Shown piece by piece: positions 8,587 to 23,514 of a stretch of DNA of 64,000 nucleotides (position 1 is the first letter of the stretch; every line of letters begins with the position of its first letter). Source of the stretch: an uncultured delta proteobacterium (lineage in GTDB: Bacteria; Myxococcota; UBA727; VGSZ01); the NCBI GenBank assembly GCA_963775425.1, contig CAVZJB010000011.1, forward strand, positions 672,001 through 736,000, in the 5' to 3' direction. Made by a program: the position numbers and the translations under genes. A model generated the notes under the pieces. It did no database searches. It was not told where the DNA came from and was given only the letters and a program-made list of their open reading frames with translations.

Positions 8587-10022
8587 GCGCCGCCGCCCCC
8601 AACGACGCCGAGCCTGGCCGCGTCTCTTCCTGGGCGCGCGGCGGAGGAGCGCCCTGGTGGGCGGCGCTCCTCGCGCTCACGTTCGTCGTGGCGTTGCGCC
8701 TCGCGTACATCAACGGCGACGGCCTGCTCTACATCGCCCACGGCCGCTTCATCCTCGACGGCGGCGCGCTGCCGGCGGTGGACCCGTTCAGCGAGATGTC
8801 GGTGCGAACGCCCCTGGTGCTCCACCTCCTGCTGCCGATGATCGGCTTCGCCGTCGTCGAGCGCGCCGGCGGGCTGTGCGCGCTCGTGCTCCTCGCCGCC
8901 GTCGCGGGCGTCGCCGTGCTCGCCGGGTTCCTCCTCCCCGCGCGCCGCTCGTTCGTCGCCACGCTCGCCGGCGCCGGCGTGCTCGCGTCGCTCCTCGGCG
9001 TCGACCACCAGTTCTTCGAGGCGCGCGCCCAGGTGCTCGCCTTCCTCCCGTTCGTCGCCTGGCTCGCCCTGTGCCGGCGCGCCCTCGACAGCGATCGCGC
9101 GCCGCTCTCCGCCGCGCACCTCGCCGCCGCGTTCGTCGTCGCGGCCCTCTGGGCAAACACCCATCCCTCGTTCCTGGTGGCGGTGGCGTTGCCGCTGTTG
9201 TTCGCGGGCGGCGTCGCGCTCGAGCCGCGGCCTGCGCGCGCGGCGTTGCGGCCCCTGCTGCTCCTGTCGGCGGTGGGGCTGTGCGCCTCGTGGGTATCGC
9301 CGTACGGCGGTCACCTCGACGCCGACGTCGTGCGCCTCCTCTTCGACGAGACCACGAGCCGCATCGAGCACATGCGCTCTCCCGGCGTCACGGCGGGCTG
9401 GCTCTTGTTCTTCGCGCTCACGGTGTCCATCGCCGTGGCGCGCGCGGTGACGGGCGAGCGGCGGCAGCGGCGGGTCGACCTCGTCGTCGCGTTCGTATGG
9501 ATCGCCATGACCCTCATCTCGCGGCGCTACGCAGCGTTCGTCGCTGCGTGGAGCATCGTGCTTCTGCCGAAGGTCCTCGCGGGTGTGCGGCTGCCGCCCA
9601 GGGTCGCGCGCGCGGCGGTGCTGGCGTCGGGTGTCGCCGCCGTTGTGGCCATCCCGCTCGTGCCGGCGCCGCTCGACGTCGACAGATCGCTCCCCGTCGC
9701 GGCTGCGTCCGTGCTCGACACGCTGCACCCGCCCCCGCGGCTCCTCAACGAGTTCGCCTGGGGCGGCTACCTGATGTATCGCTTCGGCACCCGCGCCGGC
9801 GTGTTCGTCGACGGGAGGAACAACCTCTACCACAATGGCGTCTTCGACGATTACCTGCACATGGCGTACGCCGGCCCTCGCCTCGACGAGCTCCTCGACA
9901 CCTACGACATCCGGACGGTGTTCTGGACCGCCGGCTGGCGGCTCGATCGTGCGCTCGCTTCGCGCCCTGCGTGGCGCCAGGTGTACCGGGACGAGAAAGC
10001 CGTGATCTATGTCCGGCGCTGA
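8583..10022 (+). CDS. Polytopic membrane protein, probable GT-C-fold glycosyltransferase-like
   Basis: N-terminal DGLLYIAHGRFILDGGALPAVDPFS, many TM helices, WANTHPSF, C-terminal LLNEFAWGGYL...VFVDGRNNLY; GTG start at 8583. Confidence 0.7.
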   Translation: MSAAAPNDAEPGRVSSWARGGGAPWWAALLALTFVVALRLAYINGDGLLYIAHGRFILDGGALPAVDPFSEMSVRTPLVLHLLLPMIGFAVVERAGGLCALVLLAAVAGVAVLAGFLLPARRSFVATLAGAGVLASLLGVDHQFFEARAQVLAFLPFVAWLALCRRALDSDRAPLSAAHLAAAFVVAALWANTHPSFLVAVALPLLFAGGVALEPRPARAALRPLLLLSAVGLCASWVSPYGGHLDADVVRLLFDETTSRIEHMRSPGVTAGWLLFFALTVSIAVARAVTGERRQRRVDLVVAFVWIAMTLISRRYAAFVAAWSIVLLPKVLAGVRLPPRVARAAVLASGVAAVVAIPLVPAPLDVDRSLPVAAASVLDTLHPPPRLLNEFAWGGYLMYRFGTRAGVFVDGRNNLYHNGVFDDYLHMAYAGPRLDELLDTYDIRTVFWTAGWRLDRALASRPAWRQVYRDEKAVIYVRR

Positions 10023-10965
10023 TGAGGCGCTGCCCCACGCCCCGGTGTCCGGCGACGGCGCGCAGAGCTGCCCGGTGTGCGGCGCGCCGACGCGCGCGCG
10101 CTTCTCCCTCGACGAACGAGAGGTGCTCGTCTGCACGGCGTGTGGGCACGGCGTGCTCTCTCCGCCGCCGAGCGACGAGGAGCTCGCGTCGAGCTACGCC
10201 ACCGCCTACGGCGTGGAGGGCGAGAAGTTCCGCTTGCCGGTCGAGAGCGTGGTCACGGCGCTGGCGCGGCGCGCGGCGCGCGAGCTCGCGGCGGGCTTGC
10301 CGCCGGAGTGCCGGCGGGTCCTCGACGTCGGGTGCGGGCGCGGCCTCGTGCTGAACGCGCTCGCCGAGGAGGGCGTCGCGTGCACCGGCGTCGAGCGCGA
10401 GCGCGACGCGGCCATGGGCATCGACCCGCGCGTGGAGCTCGTCGTCGTAGATGACCTCGTGGACGCCAAGCTCCCGGCCGCGTCGTTCGGCGCGGTGATG
10501 TTCCGTCACGTGCTCGAGCACCTGCGCGCGCCGGCGGCCGCGCTGCGGGAGGCGCGGCGCCTGCTTCACCCGAGGGGGCGGCTCTACGCGGAGGTGCCCG
10601 ACTTCGGCAGCACCCAGGCGCGCGTGCTCGGGCGCTTCTGGTTCCACCTCGATCCTCCGCGCCACCTGCACCAGTTCACGCGCGCGAGCGTGACGCGCAT
10701 GATCGAAGACGCGGGCTTCGTCGTCGAGGACGTCCACGTCGGTGGGCCGCTGCACGACGTCATGGGGTGGCTGCAGAGCGGCTTGAACGCGGCGGGGCGT
10801 CCGTCCATGGCGCTCTACGACGGGTTGCACGCGGGCGCGCGGCTGGCGCTGCGCGACATCGCCGGCACCGCGCTCCTCGGCCCCGGGGCGCTCGCCCTCG
10901 GCTTGCTCGAGCGCGCCACCGGGGGCGGCGCCGCGGTGGCGGTGCGCGCGCGCCCGGGTCCCTGA
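10009..10965 (+). CDS. Class I SAM-dependent methyltransferase with N-terminal CxxC-CxxC
   Basis: CPVC...CTAC, VLDVGCGRG, HVLEHL, LDPPRHLHQFT. Confidence 0.88.
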   Translation: MSGADEALPHAPVSGDGAQSCPVCGAPTRARFSLDEREVLVCTACGHGVLSPPPSDEELASSYATAYGVEGEKFRLPVESVVTALARRAARELAAGLPPECRRVLDVGCGRGLVLNALAEEGVACTGVERERDAAMGIDPRVELVVVDDLVDAKLPAASFGAVMFRHVLEHLRAPAAALREARRLLHPRGRLYAEVPDFGSTQARVLGRFWFHLDPPRHLHQFTRASVTRMIEDAGFVVEDVHVGGPLHDVMGWLQSGLNAAGRPSMALYDGLHAGARLALRDIAGTALLGPGALALGLLERATGGGAAVAVRARPGP

Positions 10966-10968
10966 GCG

Positions 10969-13900
10969 CTACTCGGCGGGCGTGCTCACGACCTTCTTGC
11001 GCAAAGCGAGGCGGTCGATCCACGTGTACGCCACGGGTACGACGACGAGGGTCAGCATCGTCGACGTGATCACACCGCCGATGACCGCCACCGCCATGGG
11101 ACCGTTGAATTCCGAGCCCTCCGCCGACGACATCGCAGTCGGCAGCTCACCGAGGACGATGGCCGCGGACGTCATCAAGATCGGACGCAGGCGCGTGGGG
11201 CCGGCCTCGAGGATCGCCTCGGTCATGCCCTTCCCCTGCGCGCGCAGTTGGTTGGTGAGGTCGACGAGGAGAATGCCGTTCTTCGTGACGAGCCCCATCA
11301 ACAGGATGATGCCGATCATCGCGGGCATGCCGATGGACAACCCCGTCAAGAACAGCCCGAGCAGCGCGCCGATCACCGCCAGCGGCAACGCCAGCATGAT
11401 GGTGAACGGATGCACGAAGCTCTCGAACTGCGACGCGAGCACGAAATAGATGAACAGGATGGCCAACGCCAACGCGACGAGCATGTTGGTGAAGGTGTCC
11501 TTCATGTTCTGGGCGTCGCCCTCGAGCTTGTAGCCGTAGCCGGGCTTGAGGAGGGCGTCGATCTTGGGCGTGATCTCGCCGAGCGCCTCACCCAAGGAGC
11601 GGTTGTCGAGGTTGGCGGTGACGGAGATGGAGCGCTGGCGGTTGTTGTGCTCCACCACCGCCGGCGACGCCGACTCCTCCACGCGCACGATCTCGTCGAG
11701 ATGGATGAGCCCGTTACGCCCGGGGACGAGGATGCGCCCGAGGTCCGCCACGGTGGCACGGTCCTCCTCTCGAAGCCGGACGCGGACGTCGATGTCGTCA
11801 CCGCGGTCGGGCATGGTGGCCACGACGTCACCCTCCACCGCGGTGCGCAAGGCGGTGGCCGCCACCGCGAAGGGGACGCCCTTGTCCGCCGCCTTGGTGC
11901 GGTCGACGACGAAGCGCTGCTCGGGCGGCCCGGGCCGCACCGAGATGCCGACGTCGACGACGCCCTTGGTGTCGCGCACGATCTCGTAGACCTGCTCCGC
12001 GGTGCGTTGCAGCTCGGTGAAGTCGGGGCCGGTGACGAGGAGCGAGATGGTCGCGGGAACGCCGTTGTTGGCGAGGTCGGGGATGCGCAGCGTGACCTTG
12101 GCGCCCGGCAGGTGCGACAGCTTCTCGCGCGCCTCCGCCATGATGGTGTCGATGTCCCGCTCGCGCTCGCCCTTGCGCGAGCACACGAGCTGGACCGCGG
12201 CCTTGGAGACGTCGCGATCGACGCCGACGCGGGTGAAGCGGGTGGGGCACTCGGGGATGCCCTTCAGGAGATCCTCGGCCTGCGTGGCCACCCGCGAGGT
12301 CTCTTCGAGCGCGGTGCCCGGCTGCAGCTCGATGACGGCTTCGAACTTGCCCTGATCACCGCGCTTGAAGAACTCGGTGCCCATGAACTTGAGGAGGCCG
12401 CAACTGCCGAAGAGCATGGCGAGCGCGAGCCCCACGACGGTCTTTTTGTGGCGGAGCGCGAAGTGAAGGATGAAGCGGTAGAAGTCGTCGAGCCACTCGA
12501 AGAAGCGCGTGGGCGGCCCGTAGAACCAGTGCGTGCGCATCTTGGTGTGGCGATCGGGATCGATGCGCTGCGCGACGCGCGCGGACAGCATGGGATCCAC
12601 GGTGAGCGACACCCCGAGCGAGACGAGGACGGCGGCGGCGACGGTGAGGCCGAACTGCTGGAAGAACTTGCCGACGAGGCCGCCCATGAACGCGATGGGG
12701 ATGAACACGGCCACGATGGTCATGGTGGTGGCGAGCACGGCCAGGCCGATCTCGCTCACGCCCTTTCTCGCCGCGGTGAGCGGATCTTCCCCCCGTTCCA
12801 GGTGTCGGAAAATGTTCTCTCGGACCACCACGCTGTCGTCGATGAGCAGGCCGATGGAGAGCGTGAGCGCCAGCATGGTCATGATGTTGAGCGAGAAGCC
12901 GAGGCGCCACACGACGAAGAAGGTGCCGACCACGCTCAACGGCAACGACACCGCGGAGATGAGGGTGGAGCGCACGTCGAGCATGAAGAAGAAGATGACG
13001 ACGATGGCGAGCAGGCCGCCGAGCACGAGGTGCTCGCGCAGGCGGTGGATGTTGTTCTCGATGAAGTGCGCCTGGTCCGCGATGAGCGTGAACTCGGTGT
13101 CCTTCGGGAGGCGCGCCTCGAGCTTCTTGACCGCGTCCTGGACGCCTTTGGTGACGGCGACCGTGTTGCTGCCCGACTGTTTCATCACCGTGAAGGTGAC
13201 GGCGTCCTTGCCGTTCACGCGCGCGAGCTCGCGAACCTCTTTGACGGAGTCGACCACCTGGCCGACATCCGCGACGCGGATCTGCGTGCCGTTGGGCATG
13301 GCGAACAGCACCGTGCGCGCGACCTCGTCGGGGGACTTGAAGCGCCCCGCCGCCTTCAGCGACAGCTCGCGTCCGCCCTGCGTGATGCGGCCGCCGGGCA
13401 GGTCGAAGCTCTCGGCGCGGAGCGCCTGCGCGACCTGCGTGACGGTGAGGCCGAGCGCCTGCAGCTTGGTCTGGTTGAGGTCGACGTGGATCTCGCGCTC
13501 CGTGCCGCCGTGGATGTCGATGCTGCCGGCGCCGGGCACCGTCTCGAGCGCGGGCGCGATGGTGTCCTCGACGAGCCGGCGGGTCTCGGTGGCGGACTGG
13601 TCGGAGCGCACCGTGTAGATCAAGACCGGCTGCGCGGACGGGTCGAGCTTGGAGATCTGCGGATCGTCGGCGTCCTTGGGCAGCGTGTTCTTCACCGCCT
13701 GCACCTTGTCGCGCACGTCGCTGGACGCGCGCAGCAGGTCGACGTCGAGCTTGAAGAGGACGACCACCACGGATACCGACTCGCGCGAGTAGCTGCGGAT
13801 GGTGTCGATGCCGTTGATGGTGGAGAGCGCCTCCTCGATGGGCTTGGTGACCTGCTCCTCGATCTCCGTGGGCGAAGCGCCCGGGTAGACGGTGGAGATG

Positions 13901-14037
13901 GAGACGACGGGGAAGCTCACGTCCGGGAAGAGATCGACGCCGAGGCGGAACAAGGCGAGCGCGCCGAGCGTGAGCACGGCGAGCGCGACCATGGTGGTGA
14001 ACACCGGGCGATCGATGGCGACGTGGGAGACCTTCAT
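10969..14037 (-). CDS. RND efflux permease (AcrB/AcrD/AcrF family)
   Basis: MKVSHVAIDRP, LFPDVSFPVV...YPGASP, GLLIDDSVVVRENI, GLVTKNGILLVD, RLRPILMT. Confidence 0.96.
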   Translation of the reverse strand: MKVSHVAIDRPVFTTMVALAVLTLGALALFRLGVDLFPDVSFPVVSISTVYPGASPTEIEEQVTKPIEEALSTINGIDTIRSYSRESVSVVVVLFKLDVDLLRASSDVRDKVQAVKNTLPKDADDPQISKLDPSAQPVLIYTVRSDQSATETRRLVEDTIAPALETVPGAGSIDIHGGTEREIHVDLNQTKLQALGLTVTQVAQALRAESFDLPGGRITQGGRELSLKAAGRFKSPDEVARTVLFAMPNGTQIRVADVGQVVDSVKEVRELARVNGKDAVTFTVMKQSGSNTVAVTKGVQDAVKKLEARLPKDTEFTLIADQAHFIENNIHRLREHLVLGGLLAIVVIFFFMLDVRSTLISAVSLPLSVVGTFFVVWRLGFSLNIMTMLALTLSIGLLIDDSVVVRENIFRHLERGEDPLTAARKGVSEIGLAVLATTMTIVAVFIPIAFMGGLVGKFFQQFGLTVAAAVLVSLGVSLTVDPMLSARVAQRIDPDRHTKMRTHWFYGPPTRFFEWLDDFYRFILHFALRHKKTVVGLALAMLFGSCGLLKFMGTEFFKRGDQGKFEAVIELQPGTALEETSRVATQAEDLLKGIPECPTRFTRVGVDRDVSKAAVQLVCSRKGERERDIDTIMAEAREKLSHLPGAKVTLRIPDLANNGVPATISLLVTGPDFTELQRTAEQVYEIVRDTKGVVDVGISVRPGPPEQRFVVDRTKAADKGVPFAVAATALRTAVEGDVVATMPDRGDDIDVRVRLREEDRATVADLGRILVPGRNGLIHLDEIVRVEESASPAVVEHNNRQRSISVTANLDNRSLGEALGEITPKIDALLKPGYGYKLEGDAQNMKDTFTNMLVALALAILFIYFVLASQFESFVHPFTIMLALPLAVIGALLGLFLTGLSIGMPAMIGIILLMGLVTKNGILLVDLTNQLRAQGKGMTEAILEAGPTRLRPILMTSAAIVLGELPTAMSSAEGSEFNGPMAVAVIGGVITSTMLTLVVVPVAYTWIDRLALRKKVVSTPAE

Positions 14038-15497
14038 GGCGTCCTCGCACAGAGGGAAGCGGGGCCGGCGTCGACGATGACGCTGACGCCCGGAGGGAGC
14101 TCGAAAGAGCGCAGCGCCCGGCTGAGCGCGGCGGCCGAAGGGGCCGGCGGCGCTCGATCGCGCGCGCCGGTGTCGTCCGCGTCGCCGGCGCCCGCGGCGC
14201 ACAGCGCAACGGCAGGGGCGCGCCCGCTGCGGAGGAGCGCGGCGGGCGTGGCGGCGAGGCGCTCGGTGGCGACGCTCGCGAGCGGCACGGCGGCGCCGGT
14301 GCTCGCCGTGACGAAGACCTGCCGGCCGAGCGGCGCGTGCACGTCGACGGGCTGGCTCACCCGAACGGGGACGGCGGCGCCGCCCTCGTCGACGTGGGTG
14401 ACGACCTCGCCGGTGAGGGCGAAGCGCACGGCGTCGGCGACGGCGGCGGCGGAGACGCCGAGGCTCGCGGCGACGCCGCGATCGACCTCGACGCTCGCCC
14501 GGGGCTCCGTTCGCGCGCCACGCATCGTGTACGTGGCGCCGTGGAGGGCCGGGGAGGAGGCGGCGCGGCGCGCGACCTCCTCGAGCGCGTCGTGGTCGGG
14601 GCCGGTGAAGACGACGGCGACCGGCGCGCTGTCGTCGACCGGCACGCGCGCGAGCGTCACGGAGGGCGATATGACGGCGCCGAGCTTTTCGAGCACGGCC
14701 TTTTGCACCGCCGCGGTCGACGCGCCCCCCTGCTTCACCACCTCGAGGACGACCGCCCCCGGGGCGGGCCGCGCCCGGGCGTCGTCGATGCTGTCCTCGG
14801 CGATGCTGTCCTCGGCGATGCTGTCCTCGGCGATCGTGGCGACGTCGGAGACGTGCACCTGGGGCGCGCGCACGACCTCGACCGCGGCGAGGTCGAGGAT
14901 GCTCCGGGCGGGCACGTCGCGCAGCACGTCCGCGACCGCCGCGGCGCTCACGTGCATCGCCCGCGCGCGCTGCCCGTCGACGCGCACCTCGACCTCGCGA
15001 TGCGCGCCGTTGTACACGGCGACACGCGCGACGCCCGGGACGGTTTCGAGCGCAGGGACGACGCTCTCCTCGACGACGCGCGTGGTCTCCACCCGCGCGA
15101 GCGACGGCGAGGTCACCGCGAAGCGAAGCACCGCCGCCTCGCCGGGTGACGCGACCGTCACCAGAGGCGCGACAGCGTCCGCCGGCAGCCGCGGGGCGAT
15201 AGACGAGACGGCACGGCGCACGCCATTGGCGGCATGAAGGAGGCTCGCCCGGGGCGCGACGACGCCGACCACCACGGCGCGTCCCTCCTGCGAGGTCGCG
15301 TGCGTGGACGCGATGCCTGCGGCCGTGGCGACCGCGTCCTCGACCACGGTGGTGACGTCGTGGTCGACGACGGCGGCCGCGGCCCCCGGCCACTCGACGA
15401 CGACGGTCACGGCGCCGGCCGGGTGCGCAGACTTGCACCCGGCGGCAGCCAGCGCTCCCGCGGCGAGCACGAGGGTGGCCGCGCGGGGGGCGGACAC
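14034..15497 (-). CDS. Lipoprotein made of AcrB-like periplasmic subdomains without TM helices
   Basis: Lipobox LAAAG-C. WPGAAAAVVDHDVTTVVEDAV, VPALETVPGV, VVKQGGASTAAV, TGPDHDAL and VDRGVAASLGVS align by eye to the adjacent permease. ATGA overlap with the permease start. Confidence 0.75.
   Translation of the reverse strand: MSAPRAATLVLAAGALAAAGCKSAHPAGAVTVVVEWPGAAAAVVDHDVTTVVEDAVATAAGIASTHATSQEGRAVVVGVVAPRASLLHAANGVRRAVSSIAPRLPADAVAPLVTVASPGEAAVLRFAVTSPSLARVETTRVVEESVVPALETVPGVARVAVYNGAHREVEVRVDGQRARAMHVSAAAVADVLRDVPARSILDLAAVEVVRAPQVHVSDVATIAEDSIAEDSIAEDSIDDARARPAPGAVVLEVVKQGGASTAAVQKAVLEKLGAVISPSVTLARVPVDDSAPVAVVFTGPDHDALEEVARRAASSPALHGATYTMRGARTEPRASVEVDRGVAASLGVSAAAVADAVRFALTGEVVTHVDEGGAAVPVRVSQPVDVHAPLGRQVFVTASTGAAVPLASVATERLAATPAALLRSGRAPAVALCAAGAGDADDTGARDRAPPAPSAAALSRALRSFELPPGVSVIVDAGPASLCARTP
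14787..14831. repeat. 3 x 15-bp in-frame tandem repeat (AEDSI)
   Basis: gatgctgtcctcggc x3. Confidence 0.9.
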
Positions 15498-15498
15498 G

Positions 15499-16644
15499 TC
15501 AGCTCTCGCCTGCCACCGCGACGGCGATGCCGTCGCGCAGGCCGGTGTCGCCCGAGATGATCACCTTGTCGCCGGGCTTGACGCCGTCCTCGATGACGAG
15601 CTCGTTTTCCACGCGGCTGCCGAGCTTGGGCTTCACCATCACGGCCTTGCCGTCGCGCACCAGGTACAGCACGGGGCCGTCGGCGGTGGCGACGACGGCC
15701 GACGCCGGCACCACCATGACGCCCTCCTGCTTGCCGAAGTCAATCTCCGCGCGGCCGAACATGTACGGCAGCAGGCCCTCCGCCGGCTTCAGCGAGACCT
15801 CGACGAGGGCGCGGCGCGTCTCGCTCTCGAGCGTGGGCGCGATGCTCGACAGCTCGCCGGCGAGGACGCGCCCGGGGAGCTCGTCGACGGTCACGCGCAC
15901 CGTCTGCCCCTTCTCGAGGCGCCCGACGTCGGAGGCGGGGACCGTGCCCTGCACCTTGAGGCCGGACTGATCCTGCACCACGAACGCCGGCTGCGCGGGG
16001 CTCGTCTGCGCGCCCACGTCGACGTTCTTCTTGGCCACCACGCCGGCGATGGGCGCGGTGACGCGGCTGTCGGCCCAGGCCTGGTTGGCGAGCCCGACCG
16101 CGGCTTCGGCCAGCGCCACTTGCGCCTCGGCCGCCTGCACGCCGACGCCCGCGAGGTGAAAGCCCGCCTCGGCCTGCTCGAAGTCGGCCTGGCTCATCGC
16201 GCCCTTGCCGTGCAGCGCCTGCGCGCGGTTCCACGACAGCGACGCCGTCTGCTGTTGCACCTTGGCGTTGTCGAGGCCGGCCTGCGCCGCCTTCTTCTGC
16301 GCTTCGGCCTGCTTCACGCGCCAGGCGAGATCGTTGGCCTCGAGGACGGCGAGCGTCTCGCCCGCCTTCACCGTCTGGCCCACCTCGGCGAGCACGCGCG
16401 TGATGCGCCCCGGCATTTTGGCGAACACCACGGCTTCGTTCCTCGCGCGCACGGTGCCCGTGATGGCGACGACGAGCGGGAGGTCCTTCTTCTCCACCAC
16501 CGCGACCGCCACCGACGGCGGCTTCTGGGCGCCCTTGTCATCGGATGCGTTGCGCTCGAGCGAGGACTTCACCCGGTAGCCGGCGACGGAGATGAACGCG
16601 GCGCAAAGCGCGACGACGATCGCCGCGATGACCAGCTTCTTCAC
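15499..16644 (-). CDS. RND periplasmic adaptor (MFP) subunit
   Basis: N-terminal TM, lipoyl halves PGRITRVLAEVGQTVKAGETLAVL and VTAPIAGVV, VVPASAVV; GTG start overlapping the upstream TGA. Confidence 0.94.
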   Translation of the reverse strand: MKKLVIAAIVVALCAAFISVAGYRVKSSLERNASDDKGAQKPPSVAVAVVEKKDLPLVVAITGTVRARNEAVVFAKMPGRITRVLAEVGQTVKAGETLAVLEANDLAWRVKQAEAQKKAAQAGLDNAKVQQQTASLSWNRAQALHGKGAMSQADFEQAEAGFHLAGVGVQAAEAQVALAEAAVGLANQAWADSRVTAPIAGVVAKKNVDVGAQTSPAQPAFVVQDQSGLKVQGTVPASDVGRLEKGQTVRVTVDELPGRVLAGELSSIAPTLESETRRALVEVSLKPAEGLLPYMFGRAEIDFGKQEGVMVVPASAVVATADGPVLYLVRDGKAVMVKPKLGSRVENELVIEDGVKPGDKVIISGDTGLRDGIAVAVAGES

Positions 16645-17297
16645 GGGTTGGCCCCGGCGGCCGCCTGGGCGCAAGAGAAGGAAGGAACGTCCTGACCCGT
16701 GCGGCACACGGGGTTCGGCGCGACCACCGCGCAGGTGTCGCTGGACGGCGCCGTGACGAGGCAGCCGTTGCACACGTCGAGGGCGAAGGTGGAGGCGGCG
16801 CCCGTGACGCCGGCGTCCACCACGAGCGGCGAGATCTGGACCACGAGCGTGGCGAACTCGAGGTCGGTGATCTTGCTGTCGTCCGCGAGCTTCTTGGTGA
16901 CGTCGCGCGGCACGAGCTCCACGTTCTCGACCACGCCCTTGCGCACGTCGTCATCCTTGCCGACGAGGAGGACGTCACCGGTGGGCACGTCGCTGAGGAC
17001 CGCGAGCTCCTTGCCGTCGCGCGTGATCTTGACGTCGACGCCGTCGACGCGGGCGTCGGCGCCGGAGATCACCATGCGCAGATCGGCGAGGTAGCCGCCG
17101 TGGGAGTTGTCGGTGGCCTTGGCGTCCATCAAGCCCGTGCCGAGCGCGGCGTCGTCGACCGTGGGCGCGGCGCAGGTGATCGACGTCCGGGGCGGCAGCA
17201 CCTCGACCGTGAGCACGGGCTCGGCGCAGCCCGCCGCCACGACGACGAGAGAGGTAGAGGCGCAGGCGAGGAGAACGGCGAACGGGCGACGGGACAT
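16641..17297 (-). CDS. Hypothetical Cys-containing lipoprotein, first gene of RND operon
   Basis: MSRRPFAVLLAC...VAAG-C lipobox; C-terminal LDVCNGCL...C...CRTGQD. Confidence 0.7.
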   Translation of the reverse strand: MSRRPFAVLLACASTSLVVVAAGCAEPVLTVEVLPPRTSITCAAPTVDDAALGTGLMDAKATDNSHGGYLADLRMVISGADARVDGVDVKITRDGKELAVLSDVPTGDVLLVGKDDDVRKGVVENVELVPRDVTKKLADDSKITDLEFATLVVQISPLVVDAGVTGAASTFALDVCNGCLVTAPSSDTCAVVAPNPVCRTGQDVPSFSCAQAAAGANP

Positions 17298-17351: not shown

Positions 17352-17993
17352 ATGACAAAGTTTCGCAATGCGAAACAAGCCGGGTCGAAAGAAGCCCGGT
17401 CGAGACAAGCCCGGCCGAAACAAGCCCGGCCGAGGCGCCTGAGGCCGACAGAAGTCGCGCCTGCGCCGCTGAAGAGGCCGGCGCCGCGCGCCCGGAAAAA
17501 GGCCGCCGGGCCGCCGCTGTTGGATGCATCGATCGCTGATTCGGTGCAGGACCTCAAGCACCTCGTGCAGGAGCTCGGCCGCATGCGTCCCCTGCGGGAT
17601 CCCATCGCCACCATCGAGCACCCCCTGACCCCCGCCCAGGTCCACAGCCTGCTGTGGCTCGGCGCCGACGGAGCGCTCCCCGCGAGCGTCCTGTCCCACC
17701 GGGTGGGGTGCGGGCAACCCACCATCACCGGCGTGATCGATCGCCTGGAAAAACTGGGCTTCGCCGAGCGCGAGCGGGACACGGGCGATCGCCGCGTGGT
17801 GCGCGTGCAGCTCACGGCGAAGGGACGCACCCTCTACGCGCAGCTCGACGAGCGCATCACCGAGAAGCTCGGCCGCTTCTTCAAGGTGATGCCGCCCGCC
17901 GATCGCGCCCACCTGCTTCGCATCATCAAAGACGTCGTCGAGACATTGCGTCTGGGGGCGTCGTCGCCGTCGCCTGCCTCGGAGGAACCGTGA
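17352..17993 (+). CDS. MarR family transcriptional regulator (start uncertain)
   Basis: LTPAQVHSLLWL...PTITGVIDRLEKLGFAERERDTGDRRVVRVQLTAKG; true start could be downstream, e.g. TTG 17520. Confidence 0.9.
   Translation: MTKFRNAKQAGSKEARSRQARPKQARPRRLRPTEVAPAPLKRPAPRARKKAAGPPLLDASIADSVQDLKHLVQELGRMRPLRDPIATIEHPLTPAQVHSLLWLGADGALPASVLSHRVGCGQPTITGVIDRLEKLGFAERERDTGDRRVVRVQLTAKGRTLYAQLDERITEKLGRFFKVMPPADRAHLLRIIKDVVETLRLGASSPSPASEEP
17360..17376. promoter_or_regulatory. Candidate MarR operator, 8-1-8 inverted repeat GTTTCGCA-A-TGCGAAAC
   Basis: Perfect palindrome in the AT-richer zone between the divergent RND operon and marR-tolC. Confidence 0.5.
17372..17431. repeat. 4 x 15-bp imperfect tandem repeat (GAAACAAGCCCGGCC-like)
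   Basis: Units at 17372, 17387, 17402, 17417. Confidence 0.85.
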
Positions 17994-19603
17994 CATCCAC
18001 ACCCTTGCGTCAGCCGGCCGCCCGGGGGCTTCTCGCCCCGGCGCTCCTCGCTGCCGTCGTCGCGAGCGGCGCGGCCCAGGCCCAGAACAACGGCGCCCAG
18101 CCGGGCACCACGGGGCTGCGGGGGTTGCGCCCGACCACGGCGCCGAAGGTGATCACGCTCGACGAGGCCTTCGCCGACGCCATCCAGCACAGCTACGACC
18201 TGCGCATCGCCGCCGCCCGCCTCGACGAGTCCGAGGCCCAGGTGAAGAAGGCGTGGTCGGCGGTGATGCCGCAGATCTCCTTGAGCGGCCAGTACAACCA
18301 CAACTTCCCCGAGCAGAAGTTCGCCTTCGGCGACCCCAAGCAGTTCAAGCAGCAGGCGCTGCTCTTCAACTCCATCGCGGATCTCACCGCGGCCGCGGCC
18401 GCCGCCAACCCCGATCCGCTCCAGCAGCGCGCGGCGCTCGAGCAGGCGGACACGCTCCGGCAGACCGCCAAGGACATCGCCAACACCAAGGTCACCGACA
18501 TCATCATCACGCCGGCGGACGAGGTGAACGGGCAGCTCCAGATCACGGTGCCGCTGTTCAACGGGCGCGCGCTCCCTCTCCTGCAAAACGCGTATGCCGG
18601 CGTCGACATCACCAAGATCGCGGCGCGGGAGGCGCGCGCTGCGGTGATCTACGGCGTGGCGCGCGCCTACTTCCAGGTCGTCGCGGCCAAGCGCATCGTC
18701 GCCATCACCGATCAGCAGGTGGAGAGCTCCACTGCGCACAAGAAGCTCGCGCAGCAGCAGCTCGACGAGGGCCTCGGCACGCACCTCTCGGTGCAGCGCG
18801 CTGAGCTCGATCTCGCGCGCGCGGAGCAGCACAAAGAGGCGGCTGAGGGCGGCGTAAAGCTCGCCAAGGGCGCGCTCGGCTCGCTCATCGGCGTGGTCGA
18901 GGACTTCGACGTCGCGGAGCCGCCGCCGGTGCCCGCCCTCGAGCAGGGCAAGTCCGCCGACGAGCTGCTGGCGCGCGCGGTCCAGTCGCGCGACGACCTG
19001 CGGCTCGAGAAGCAGGCGCTCGCCGTGGCCGACCACAACAAGCTCGACGCGTGGATGCGCTTCCTGCCGAGCGTGGGCCTGGTGGCCACGGGGCGGGGCA
19101 CGTCCAACACCGGCGGCCTCGTGAGCCAGCCCTTCACCGGCGTCGTCGGCGTGCAGGCGAGCCTGCCCATCTTCGACGGCGGCCTCACGTACGGGACCAT
19201 CGACGAAGCGAACGCCAAGCTGCGCCAAGAGGTGCTGAAGGTGAGGCAGCTCGAGCAGACCATCGAGGAGGAGGTGCGGGGAACGCTCGACGACCTCACG
19301 CTCAAGCGCACCGCCGTGGAGACCGCGGACCGCGTCGCGGCGCTGGCGCACGCGCAGAAGAAGAACGTCGACGACCTGTTCGCCGCAGGCGCCGCGACGG
19401 GCCTCGACGTCACCGACGCCAGCCTCGCCGCGTTCTCCGCCGACGTCGACGCCGCTCGCGCGCGCTTCGACCTGGAGACGGCGCGGCTCGGGCTCGCGTA
19501 CGCCATCGGCGAGCTCCGCCCCGACCCCGACCTGGGCCCCAAGCCGGTGACGGGCAAGGAGGAGGAGCAGGCGCGCTCCTATCTCGACACAGCGAGCGAG
19601 TGA
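17990..19603 (+). CDS. TolC family outer membrane efflux protein
   Basis: Signal peptide, ITLDEAFADAIQHSYDL, VPLFNG, SLPIFDGG, two helical repeats; GGAGG then GTG overlapping the marR stop. Confidence 0.92.
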   Translation: MTSTPLRQPAARGLLAPALLAAVVASGAAQAQNNGAQPGTTGLRGLRPTTAPKVITLDEAFADAIQHSYDLRIAAARLDESEAQVKKAWSAVMPQISLSGQYNHNFPEQKFAFGDPKQFKQQALLFNSIADLTAAAAAANPDPLQQRAALEQADTLRQTAKDIANTKVTDIIITPADEVNGQLQITVPLFNGRALPLLQNAYAGVDITKIAAREARAAVIYGVARAYFQVVAAKRIVAITDQQVESSTAHKKLAQQQLDEGLGTHLSVQRAELDLARAEQHKEAAEGGVKLAKGALGSLIGVVEDFDVAEPPPVPALEQGKSADELLARAVQSRDDLRLEKQALAVADHNKLDAWMRFLPSVGLVATGRGTSNTGGLVSQPFTGVVGVQASLPIFDGGLTYGTIDEANAKLRQEVLKVRQLEQTIEEEVRGTLDDLTLKRTAVETADRVAALAHAQKKNVDDLFAAGAATGLDVTDASLAAFSADVDAARARFDLETARLGLAYAIGELRPDPDLGPKPVTGKEEEQARSYLDTASE

Positions 19604-20631: not shown

Positions 20632-23514
20632 TCAGCGGCGGCGGCGGCGGAGGAGGAGGAGGAGCGCCGCCGGGCCGAGCGACGAGAGCGCTCCGCCCTG
20701 GGCGCAACCGACGGCGCCGTTCGTGCCGTTGGCTCCGGGCGCGCCGTCGGCGCCGGGCGCTCCATCGAGGCCGTCTGCGCCGTCGGCTCCGGGCGCGCCG
20801 TCGGCTCCGGGCGCGCCGTCGAGGCCGTCCGCGCCGTCTGCGCCGTCTGCGCCGTTCGCGCCGTCTGCGCCGTTCGCGCCGTCTGCGCCGTCTGCGCCGT
20901 TCGCGCCGTCTGCGCCGTCTGCCCCGGGCGCGCCGTCTGCGCCGTTGGCCCCGCTGGCGCCGTCGGCCCCGTCGGCGCCGTTGCAGATCGGCGTGGCGAC
21001 GTCGACCTCGGTGTCGCCGAGGACGCCGTCGTCGGCGGTGTCGCCGTCGCCGCCGTCGTCGACGCCGCTTTCGACGAGCACGCCGCCGGCCGGGCACTGC
21101 GCGTCGCCCGCGGCCAGGAGGACGACGGCCACCAGGGCGTCGTGGCCGTTCGCGCCGTCTGCGCCGTCGGCCCCGTTCGCGCCGTCGGCCCCGTTCGCGC
21201 CGTCGGCCCCGTTCGCCCCGTCGGCGCCGTTCGCGCCGTCGGCCCCGTCGGCGCCGTCGGCCCCGTTCGCGCCGTCGGCCCCGTTGCACACCACCGTCGA
21301 CGCGTCGACCTCGCCGGCGCCGAGGAAGCCGTCGTCCGCGGTCTCGCCGCCGCTGCCGTCGTCGACGCCGCTCTCGATGAAGGAGCCGCCGCTGGCGCAC
21401 AGCGCGTCGCCCACGGGCAGCGTGGTGACGGAGAGGAGCGCGCTGTGTCCGTCGGCGCCGTTCGTGCCGTCGACGCCGTCGGTACCGTTCGTGCCGTCGA
21501 CGCCGTTCGTGCCGTCGACGCCGTCGGTGCCGTCGGTGCCGTTCGTGCCGTCGACGCCGTCCGTGCCGTTGCAGATCGGCGTCGCGACATCGACCTCGCC
21601 GGCGCCGAGGACGCCGTCGTCGGCGATCTCGCCGCCGCTGCCGTCGTCGACGCCGCCCTCGACGAGAGAGCCGCCGTTCGGGCACAGCGCGTCGCCGACG
21701 GCCAGGGCGGTGATCGAGACGAGCGCGCTGTGTCCGTCGGTGCCGTCGGTGCCGTTGGTGCCGTTGGTGCCGTCGGTGCCGTTGCTGCCGTCGGCCCCGT
21801 TGCACACGACCGTCGACGCGTCGACCTCGCCGGCGCCGAGGACGCCGTCGTTCGCTGTCTCGCCGCCGCTGCCGTCGTCGACGCCGCTCTCGATGAAGGA
21901 GCCGCCGGTGGGGCACAGCGCGTCGCCCACGGGCAGCGCGGTGACGGAGAGGAGCGTGCTGTGGCCGTCGACGCCATCGGAGCCGTTCGTGCCGTCGACG
22001 CCGTTCGTGCCGTCGACGCCGTCCGTGCCGTCGACGCCGGCCGTGCCGTCGACGCCGTTCGTGCCGTCGACGCCATCGACGCCGTTGCACACCACCGTCG
22101 CCGCCTCGACCTCGCCGGCGCCGAGGACGCCGTCGTCCGCGGTCTCGCCGCCGCTGCCGTCGTCGACGCCGCTCTCGATCAAGGAGCCGCCGTTGGCGCA
22201 CAGCGCGTCGCCCACGGGCAGCGCGGTGACGGAGAGGAGCACGCCGTGGCCGTCGGCGCCGTTCGCGCCATCGACGCCATCGCTGCCGTTCGCCCCGTTG
22301 CAGATCGGGGTCGTCACGTCGACCTCGCCCGCGCCGAGGACGCCGTCGTCCGCGGTCTCGCCGCCGCCGCCGTCGTCGACGCCGCTCTCCACGAGTGAAC
22401 CGCCATCGGGGCACCGCTCGTCGTCGACGGGCAGAGGGGTGATGGAGACGAGCGCGTCGTGGCCGTCGACGCCGGCCGCGCCGGCCGCGCCGTCCGCGCC
22501 GTCCGCGCCGTTCGCGCCGTCGACGCCATCGGTGCCGTTGCAGATCGGGGTCGTGACGTCGACCTCGCCGGCGCCGAGGACGCCATCGTCGGCGGTCTCG
22601 CCGCCGCTGCCGTCGTCGACGCCGCTCGCGATGAGCGAGCCGCCGTTTTGGCAGAGCTCGTCGCCCACGGGGAGGGAGAGCGCGACGAGCAGCGTATTGT
22701 GGCCGTCGGTTCCGGCGGTGCCGTTGTTGCCATCGAGGCCGTCGCTGCCGTTGCAGAGGTTCGCGGTGGTGTCGATCTCGGCGGCCTGCAGCACGCCGTC
22801 ACCGGCGACGCCGCCGTCATCCATGATGGTCTGGAAGTAGTAGTCCTGGCTCGCGTGCGCCGTGAACGGGGGGCCGCTGCCGCCGTGGTCGAACGCGGTC
22901 CCGTCGACGTAGGGGTCCGGGAGGCTGTTGCCGAAGTCCGGGCCGAAGGTGAAAGAGTGCGTGTTGTAGCCGCCCGGGCTGAAGTCGAAGCACCCCGGAT
23001 CCGACGACGCCGCCGTGCCGAGGACGATCGCGTACACCGTCCCCGCCTCGAGCGCCGCGCCCGACGTGAACGTGTAGAGCTGGATGCCCGTCGCCGGCGA
23101 GAAGGTCTGCGTCGCGAGGACGGTGCCGTTCGGGGCGCCGCCCGTCGTGGCTTCGATGCTCACGATCAGGCTCGGCGCGGGGACGGTGGTGAAGTCGTCG
23201 AAGCAGAAGCCGCCGGTCGCGTCGACGTCGAGCTCCACCTGCGTCAGCACGCCGCTGAGCCCGGCCTTGAAGGTCTGTGCAATCTCCTGGTTGTTCCCGA
23301 GGGACGTCCCGCCGTTGTTCACCGACGTCATCGCCTGGTCGGGCCCGTCGAGCGTCCCGCCGTCGTCGAGGCCGGTGTCGATCCGGGTGCCACCGGCGGG
23401 GCACACCTCGCCCGCGGGGATGGGCGTGAGCTCGAGGAGGGACGTTGCCGGGACCGCGGACGCCGCCTGCGCAGCGCCGAGGACGAGGAGTGTGACCAGA
23501 GACGGGTGCTTCAT
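20632..23514 (-). CDS. Surface protein with 8 Cys-bracketed acidic modules, collagen-like Gly-X-Y linkers and MYXO-CTERM-like tail
   Basis: Signal peptide; repeats of C..GG....SGVDDGSGGETADDGVLGAGEVD....CNG separated by (GAD/GAN/GTD)n; ends GCAQGG...AALLLLLRRRRR. Confidence 0.88.
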   Translation of the reverse strand: MKHPSLVTLLVLGAAQAASAVPATSLLELTPIPAGEVCPAGGTRIDTGLDDGGTLDGPDQAMTSVNNGGTSLGNNQEIAQTFKAGLSGVLTQVELDVDATGGFCFDDFTTVPAPSLIVSIEATTGGAPNGTVLATQTFSPATGIQLYTFTSGAALEAGTVYAIVLGTAASSDPGCFDFSPGGYNTHSFTFGPDFGNSLPDPYVDGTAFDHGGSGPPFTAHASQDYYFQTIMDDGGVAGDGVLQAAEIDTTANLCNGSDGLDGNNGTAGTDGHNTLLVALSLPVGDELCQNGGSLIASGVDDGSGGETADDGVLGAGEVDVTTPICNGTDGVDGANGADGADGAAGAAGVDGHDALVSITPLPVDDERCPDGGSLVESGVDDGGGGETADDGVLGAGEVDVTTPICNGANGSDGVDGANGADGHGVLLSVTALPVGDALCANGGSLIESGVDDGSGGETADDGVLGAGEVEAATVVCNGVDGVDGTNGVDGTAGVDGTDGVDGTNGVDGTNGSDGVDGHSTLLSVTALPVGDALCPTGGSFIESGVDDGSGGETANDGVLGAGEVDASTVVCNGADGSNGTDGTNGTNGTDGTDGHSALVSITALAVGDALCPNGGSLVEGGVDDGSGGEIADDGVLGAGEVDVATPICNGTDGVDGTNGTDGTDGVDGTNGVDGTNGTDGVDGTNGADGHSALLSVTTLPVGDALCASGGSFIESGVDDGSGGETADDGFLGAGEVDASTVVCNGADGANGADGADGADGANGADGANGADGANGADGANGADGADGANGHDALVAVVLLAAGDAQCPAGGVLVESGVDDGGDGDTADDGVLGDTEVDVATPICNGADGADGASGANGADGAPGADGADGANGADGADGANGADGANGADGADGADGLDGAPGADGAPGADGADGLDGAPGADGAPGANGTNGAVGCAQGGALSSLGPAALLLLLRRRRR

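Follow-up and report, generated by a model that had tools for sequence, protein, structure and literature searches.

A transmembrane-less RND headpiece and predicted lipoprotein encoded between adaptor and permease genes in an uncultured member of the Myxococcota

In diderm bacteria, efflux depends mainly on resistance-nodulation-division (RND) pumps. To our knowledge, every described RND member couples a 12-helix proton motor to a periplasmic headpiece, and the only precedent that we know of for a headpiece without its motor is a laboratory construct, AcrBper. Does such a protein also occur in nature, encoded by a gene of its own? The question is raised by a minus-strand gene in a 64,000-nt stretch of DNA from an uncultured delta proteobacterium (Myxococcota; UBA727; VGSZ01; assembly GCA_963775425.1, contig CAVZJB010000011.1, positions 672,001 to 736,000), the whole of which is here called the window. 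The gene lies between those for a periplasmic adaptor (membrane fusion protein, MFP) and a full RND permease, and its product, a headpiece lipoprotein without transmembrane (TM) helices, is labelled P0001. A first-pass annotation, which left the strand unstated, had described it as a paralogue of the adjacent permease that was repurposed rather than left to random decay. The interval 14034..15497 contains a genuine gene, kept by selection, whose product is a periplasmic RND headpiece with a lipoprotein signal. In its architecture, this product represents a new variant within the RND family, from which it clearly derives although the defining features of a transporter are missing.

Anatomy and predicted fold of P0001

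The window has a GC content of 71.8% and long open reading frames (ORFs) in many frames. Within it, the P0001 gene has GC contents of 0.81, 0.58 and 0.93 at the first, second and third codon positions, compared with 0.75, 0.47 and 0.93 for the MFP gene and 0.65, 0.41 and 0.95 for the permease gene. In a genome so rich in GC, this is how a frame that is translated should look. The protein is recognized in two stretches by the Pfam ACR_tran model (PF00873; E 6.4e-36; 123.9 bits, where the cut-off is 28) and falls far below the cut-off of the full-length NCBIfam RND models (106.9 bits, cut-off 1250). Pairwise alignment with the neighbour permease (BLASTP) gives similarity beyond chance in both periplasmic loops: residues 7-268 match permease residues 20-299 (31% identity, 294 columns, E 6e-25) and residues 270-380 match 638-753 (32% identity, 119 columns, E 3e-4). 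The motifs on which the first-pass annotation had relied are all present (WPGA/YPGA, PALETVPG, VKQGGAST/MKQSGSNT, TGPD, VDRGVAA/VDRTKAA and GEVVT/GDVVA). The best solved structure by sequence profile is MdtB (9lyq_B, E 3.5e-47), and the loop-2 stretch of a P0001 homologue maps to positions 724-828 of an AcrB-like profile.

Which parts of a permease does P0001 keep? Occupancy was counted in an alignment (A3) of 13 TM-less proteins, 27 full-length permeases and the neighbour permease, on which the region limits are approximate and follow the AcrB subdomain boundaries. Aligned P0001 residues fill 91/98 positions of PN1, 48/48 of PN2a, 54/63 of PN2b, 61/86 of DN, 46/50 of PC2a, 91/95 of DC and 40/45 of PC2b. 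The corresponding counts are 0/220 for TM2-7, 9/177 for TM8-12 and 1/110 for PC1. Averaged over 19 residues, Kyte-Doolittle hydropathy stays below 1.6 everywhere in P0001, a level that many such windows of the permease reach. P0001 keeps PN1, PN2, PC2, a shortened DN and DC, and is without the 12 TM helices, PC1 and the DN hairpin. The loss of all TM helices proposed earlier is thus borne out. The proposed jump from one loop to the next stands in that loop 1 is joined to loop 2; its landing point, however, is within PC2 rather than at the start of loop 2, and PC1 has been lost as well. Without a membrane domain P0001 cannot be a transporter, and without TM helices it has no proton relay.

In DN, about 25 residues are deleted opposite the segment PGGRITQGGRELSLKAAGRF of the neighbour permease. 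This segment is the DN trimerization hairpin and has no counterpart in P0001; the long DN hairpin of AcrB inserts into the adjacent protomer. Also in DN, a 15-bp tandem repeat (Table 1) looks like a recent slippage expansion. Cutting the AcrB loop by 17 residues gives a well-folded monomer, and the substitution P223G in this loop disrupts trimerization (PMC4303003). These mutants resemble P0001 in that the long DN loop entering the neighbouring protomer is lost or weakened. They are, however, laboratory forms of a full transporter whose activity is lost (PMC4303003), whereas the deletion in P0001 and its close subfamily is natural and conserved.

The first-pass annotation had allowed that the protein might prove unfoldable. 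The AlphaFold2 monomer model, built from a 41-row alignment, is instead a confident RND headpiece fold, with a mean predicted local distance difference test score (pLDDT) of 89.0 and a predicted template modelling score (pTM) of 0.83. Confidence is low in two places, residues 231-241 (pLDDT below 50) and about 440-455; the former is the only long low-confidence loop and carries the IAEDS repeat. A helix at 3-20, corresponding to the signal, is followed by beta-alpha-beta modules throughout, and strand 281-285 is joined by a short linker to the PC2 strand 293-298 with no PC1 between them. In a Foldseek search of the PDB, all 11 listed rows above rank 17 are AcrBper entries, led by 7b8s_B (E 3.2e-28, TMq 0.62, TMt 0.54), and CusA, MtrD and AcrD come after them. 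VIA-align comparisons of the model with AcrBper, AcrB, AcrD and CusA give Z of 20-22.6 over 425-455 aligned residues. For AcrB (4dx7_C), Z is 21.1 with a root-mean-square deviation of 4.0 Å over 425 residues, model residues 25-478 being matched to chain residues 38-862, the full span of both periplasmic loops.

P0001 shares homologous PN1, PN2, DN, PC2 and DC with the full-length permeases (AcrB, MdtB, CusA; PF00873), as well as the setting of an MFP-permease operon beside an outer-membrane factor gene. It differs in having no TM helices, no proton-driven transport, no PC1 and no hairpin, and in its length of 487 aa against about 1020-1050 aa. The closer likeness is to AcrBper, an engineered soluble TM-less AcrB headpiece that folds and binds ligands (PMC8617272). 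In both, periplasmic RND loops alone, with loop 1 joined directly to loop 2, fold without a membrane domain. AcrBper is man-made, soluble, trimeric in crystals with DARPin, has all four porter subdomains and binds drugs (PMC8617272). P0001, in contrast, is natural, carries a lipoprotein signal and a Cys-containing C-terminal tail, and lacks PC1 and the DN hairpin.

The TM-less family and its origin

Is P0001 an isolated case? A word-indexed search found P0002 (473 aa), which is 39% identical to P0001 over 491 columns and carries the NCBI label of a partial RND permease from a Myxococcota metagenome-assembled genome. A profile of the two proteins, searched over 1.84 billion protein representatives, matched 7351 proteins at an E of 0.001 or better. 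Six reached 1e-30 or better, comprising two full-length permeases and four TM-less relatives; the latter lie at 1e-50 or better and are 37-43% identical to P0001. From the best 150 of the 7351, 12 proteins shorter than 620 aa were taken, each with a match that either began near its N-terminus or covered most of the profile. Further short rows (among them P0079, P0098, P0127, P0134, P0145, P0147 and P0151) were left out as loop-1-only matches, which are probably gene fragments. The complete TM-less relatives that align over their whole length, in a single stretch, number at least eight and are 445-511 aa long (P0002-P0005, P0061, P0070, P0081 and P0124), P0129 is a partial one (267 aa), and four are longer, at 543-604 aa (P0071, P0114, P0122 and P0144). 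A second word-indexed search added P0153 (595 aa) and P0154, which is N-terminally partial and labelled Myxococcales bacterium. The clusters of the relatives hold one or two member sequences each, on one to three contigs, and database labels call family members partial permeases or AcrB.

In the family alignment (A2), identity to P0001 is 40% for P0002, 43% for P0003, 38% for P0004, 37% for P0005, 38% for the partial P0129 and 26-33% for P0061, P0070, P0081 and P0124. The DN hairpin is absent from P0001-P0005 and kept in P0070 and P0081. Across the 13 TM-less rows, 0-55 of the 220 positions of TM2-7 hold aligned residues (35 in P0061, 9 in P0124, 39-55 in the four long forms); in the long forms these are probably misaligned PC1-like segments. 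P0001 has the features by which the family is recognized, namely loop 1 fused to loop 2, no TM helices, a length of about 445-604 aa and an N-terminal lipobox or anchor. Judged by sequence, it is one of a small group of TM-less RND headpiece proteins that had not been named as a family before. Relatives of the same architecture at 37-43% identity, with the frame unbroken, bear out the earlier view that the gene is no product of random decay, as do the coding-like codon GC, the confident model and a cysteine pair in 6/6 members of the subfamily. ESM Atlas returned only clusters of ACR_tran fragments of about 290 aa (scores 0.87-0.89). A genome-contig scan with the P0001 and P0002 alignment gave nine loci with 24-29% identity to the loop-1 part, none of them family members, and no relative turned up in two metagenome-contig scans, whose queries were the close-subfamily alignment and P0081, respectively. 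No description of natural TM-less RND proteins was found in the literature outside subscription-only sources.

The long relative P0153 retains more of the fold. Its model (pLDDT 87.8) has an extra beta-alpha-beta-beta-alpha-beta module at residues 302-387, in the place of PC1, and matches AcrBper over its whole length (E 2.9e-37, TM 0.69/0.71). AcrBper is thus the best structural match of both P0001 and P0153. Judged from these models, the family is made up of complete natural AcrBper-like proteins and of forms that have since lost PC1.

How might these proteins be anchored in the periplasm? The N-terminus of P0001 is basic, then hydrophobic, and ends in AAGC, a match to the lipobox pattern. 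The lipobox Cys is nearly invariant in A2 and is present in 13 of the 14 family members having an N-terminus, P0122 being the one without it; P0129 and P0154 are truncated and were left unscored. The earlier claim that a lipobox replaces TM1 thus agrees both with the pattern around Cys21 and with its conservation. In the M. xanthus data, which are the only basis for a Lys +2 rule, inner-membrane lipoproteins have Lys at +2 in 8/12 cases (PMC3222651). At the other end of the protein, Cys433 and Cys483 (P0001 numbering) are common to 6/6 members of the close subgroup, as would be expected if a periplasmic disulfide fastened the new C-terminal tail. A metagenomic relative, P0114 (573 aa), has an N-terminal lipobox and also a strongly hydrophobic C-terminal segment at 540-570, which may be a retained or new membrane anchor.

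Where did the family come from? A quick IQ-TREE tree was made from the columns occupied by P0001 (40 rows, 466 columns, partial P0129 left out). On it, 12/13 TM-less rows fall on one side of a branch with an SH-aLRT of 94, P0144 lying outside, and P0001-P0005 form a clade with a support of 99. The P0001 tip branch is 0.6, against a median of 0.96 for the full-length permeases, and the short and long TM-less forms are intermixed. The neighbour permease groups with the ordinary permeases P0009 and P0025 and is not nearest to P0001. The proposed origin as a paralogue of the adjacent permease is therefore not supported, as the tree puts P0001 with its TM-less relatives instead, and a recent duplication of that gene is rejected. 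An assembly artefact is likewise rejected, given independent metagenomic homologues that share the architecture.

Operon context and distribution

The P0001 gene is the third in a minus-strand chain of four, running from lipo_up through the MFP and P0001 genes to the permease gene, with the outer-membrane factor gene divergent (Table 1). The junctions, read directly, agree with the intact, doubly coupled ORF of the first-pass annotation: the MFP stop TGA is followed by one base and then the GTG of the P0001 gene, whose own TGA overlaps the permease ATG as ATGA. The MFP start overlaps the lipo_up stop as GTGA; its position, GTG at 16644, was inferred from this overlap and from orthologue alignments. 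The outer-membrane factor gene probably has its real start downstream of 17654.

Table 1. Features of the P0001 locus, in window coordinates
Feature	Position	Strand	Basis or remark
TM-less RND headpiece lipoprotein gene (P0001)	14034..15497	-	487 aa, GTG start, TGA stop; Pfam, codon-position GC
Signal peptide with lipobox, residues 1-21 (MSAPRAATLVLAAGALAAAG-C, Lys at +2)	15435..15497	-	Pattern match AAGC, Cys21; putative lipidation
Loop-1-derived part, residues 22-288 (PN1, PN2, shortened DN)	14634..15434	-	BLASTP, occupancy, secondary structure; limits approximate
Loop-2-derived part, residues 289-487 (PC2 with inserted DC, short Cys-containing tail)	14037..14633	-	BLASTP, occupancy; limits approximate
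15-bp tandem repeat, 3.5 copies, in frame (IAEDS x3, disordered DN loop)	14782..14834	-	TRF, 97% matches
Full RND permease, 1022 aa	10969..14037	-	Pfam ACR_tran 1.7e-269, residues 4-1007
Periplasmic adaptor (MFP), 381 aa	15499..16644	-	HlyD_D23 and HlyD_3; TIGR01730 RND_mfp 1.7e-63
lipo_up, 218-aa lipoprotein, first operon gene	16641..17297	-	No Pfam family; conserved in relatives
Outer-membrane factor (TolC-like OEP), divergent	17654..19603	+	Pfam OEP 8.9e-54; position kept in relatives

Is P0001 a regular part of this operon? Its own genome (G000) has one copy, and no further TM-less gene came to light there when P0153, a long form, was used as the query. A search with P0001 gave a match at E 1e-28 or better in only one of the 38 genomes of the class, namely G000 itself. 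In the phylum (401 genomes, including one unpublished, G195), the family profile gave a full-length match only in G000 among the matches listed (positions 2-454 of 455, E 5.9e-152). The next best of these (5.6e-59) covers positions 20-281 and lies inside a 1065-aa frame. Four candidates per genome were scored in this search and the best 150 of 1258 matches considered, so that weaker members could be missed. The permease orthologue is present in 10/10 genomes of the same family at 61-71% identity, and in all ten it directly follows the MFP gene, with 10-94 nt between the tblastn alignments and no P0001. Upstream of the MFP gene, lipo_up is found in 9/10 of these loci at 40-49% identity, the tenth being too short to show it. 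The lipo_up, MFP and permease genes and the divergent outer-membrane factor gene are thus conserved in relatives. The ten operons without P0001 mark it as an addition in this lineage, and its gene is probably a lineage-specific insertion into a conserved operon. Alternatively, P0001 could have been lost in all three other genera, which is less parsimonious.

The lipo_up protein has a lipobox (AAGC) and a Cys-rich C-terminus, and may be a further component of this efflux system. The permease frame stays open for about 467 codons 5' of its ATG (10969-15438, minus strand), crossing the P0001 gene in another frame; high GC content accounts for this artefact, which could lead gene-calling programs astray. 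At 10009-10965 (plus strand), a class I S-adenosylmethionine-dependent methyltransferase gene with an N-terminal zinc-ribbon is convergent with the permease gene, the two ORFs ending 3 bp apart. Farther away, at 20632-23514 (minus strand), a 960-aa ORF contains seven DUF7151 stretches and five collagen triple-helix repeat stretches. A search of public sequencing runs for the locus listed no run with it, and no RNA run.

Proposed role and rival explanations

What might a headpiece without a motor do beside a complete pump? Of the candidate roles named in the first-pass annotation (periplasmic substrate capture, decoy, regulatory subunit), the first, in its canonical form, is made less likely by the loss of PC1. 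We propose that P0001 is a lipid-anchored, probably monomeric mimic of a pump protomer, one that does not itself transport but modulates the pump with which it is co-expressed; taken as a whole, this statement seems to us evenly poised between right and wrong, and most of our trust in it concerns what the protein is. P0001 would be lipidated at Cys21 and, as the Lys at +2 suggests, retained on the outer face of the inner membrane. It would stand there as a monomer and, since only about seven residues separate Cys21 from the first PN1 strand, it would be oriented like a pump protomer. Incapable of transport itself, it would contact the co-expressed adaptor and/or permease through its docking and PN2/PC2 surfaces, and such contacts would modulate the assembly or activity of the pump. 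In AcrB, PC1 lines the proximal and distal drug pockets and forms the entrance cleft. Because PC1 has been lost within a family that persists, the function is unlikely to depend on the canonical drug pockets; contacts with other proteins, by way of the docking and PN2/PC2 surfaces, are the more likely basis.

Several points weigh against this proposal. In CusBA and AcrAB structures, PC1 also contributes to both adaptor-binding sites, and its loss therefore argues against canonical adaptor docking. The residue at +2 varies across the family (K, H, R, G, S), so that retention in the inner membrane is no family trait. Linkage of a family member to MFP and RND permease genes was seen at the locus in this window, and the association with a pump rests on this single case. 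Confinement of P0001 to G000, among the matches listed for the 38 genomes of the class and the 401 of the phylum, makes it dispensable for this type of operon. The branch uniting the TM-less proteins lies just under the 95 mark of the tool; with compositional bias flagged in 21 rows and several long branches in the tree, a single origin of the family is likely, not proven.

Could the headpiece instead bind a pump substrate in the periplasm and pass it to the permease, in the manner of CusF with CusCBA or LppX with MmpL7? Engineered AcrBper binds drugs without a membrane domain (PMC8617272), CusF is a periplasmic chaperone feeding an RND pump (PMC8277102) and LppX works with MmpL7 (PMC11539658). 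CusF (CusCFBA; PMC8277102), LppX (MmpL7; PMC11539658) and YbjP (TolC; PMC13095208) are extra periplasmic or lipid-anchored pump components without sequence or fold kinship to the transporter-derived P0001, and the likeness would be one of functional analogy. Long family members do keep a PC1-like module (302-387 in the P0153 model, whose best matches are AcrBper at TM 0.7 both ways), and yet the tree does not separate short forms from long ones, which indicates that the function of the family apparently survives the loss of PC1. This subdomain, which lines the drug pockets and entrance cleft of AcrB, is gone from P0001 and the other short forms, and no ligand-binding motif was identified. We regard substrate capture as unlikely. 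A functional periplasmic lipoprotein unrelated to efflux, its operon position being an insertion accident that provides expression, would explain why all ten same-family genomes have this operon without the gene, why it is not derived from the neighbour permease and why the family is rare and patchy. Such an accident hardly calls for precise coupling on both sides, by a 1-bp gap and ATGA, and the sole known partners of the fold are pump components; this explanation strikes us as quite improbable.

Might P0001 be merely a non-functional remnant, a decaying duplicate of a permease that is still open in a 72% GC genome? Long ORFs do occur in many frames of this GC-rich window, and a recent in-frame expansion of the 15-bp repeat has been tolerated. 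However, homologues only 37-43% identical keep the same deletions, frame and lipobox, and a Cys pair peculiar to the subfamily is conserved. The GC3 of 0.93 is specific to the P0001 frame, the AlphaFold2 model is confident and the tip branch is shorter than the median of full-length permeases. Decay is thus a very poor explanation of the gene.

A broader idea is that TM-less headpieces form a new class of pump accessories, as natural protomer mimics that keep the hairpin-receiving groove and the docking surface and have lost their own hairpin, pockets and motor. They could cap permease protomers or occupy adaptor sites, controlling the number of active tripartite pumps post-translationally. 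We put this forward as a speculation that is probably wrong in its full form.

P0001 is a natural, conserved headpiece without a motor, in which half of an RND protein has been reused as a separate lipoprotein. If it is true that P0001 binds pump components, it would be an accessory or regulator of a new type, and the design of soluble headpiece tools or of pump-assembly inhibitors would gain a natural template. If it binds ligands instead, it would represent a new periplasmic binding fold. For annotation, the family is a warning that a record labelled "efflux RND transporter permease subunit, partial" can in fact be a whole protein of another kind.

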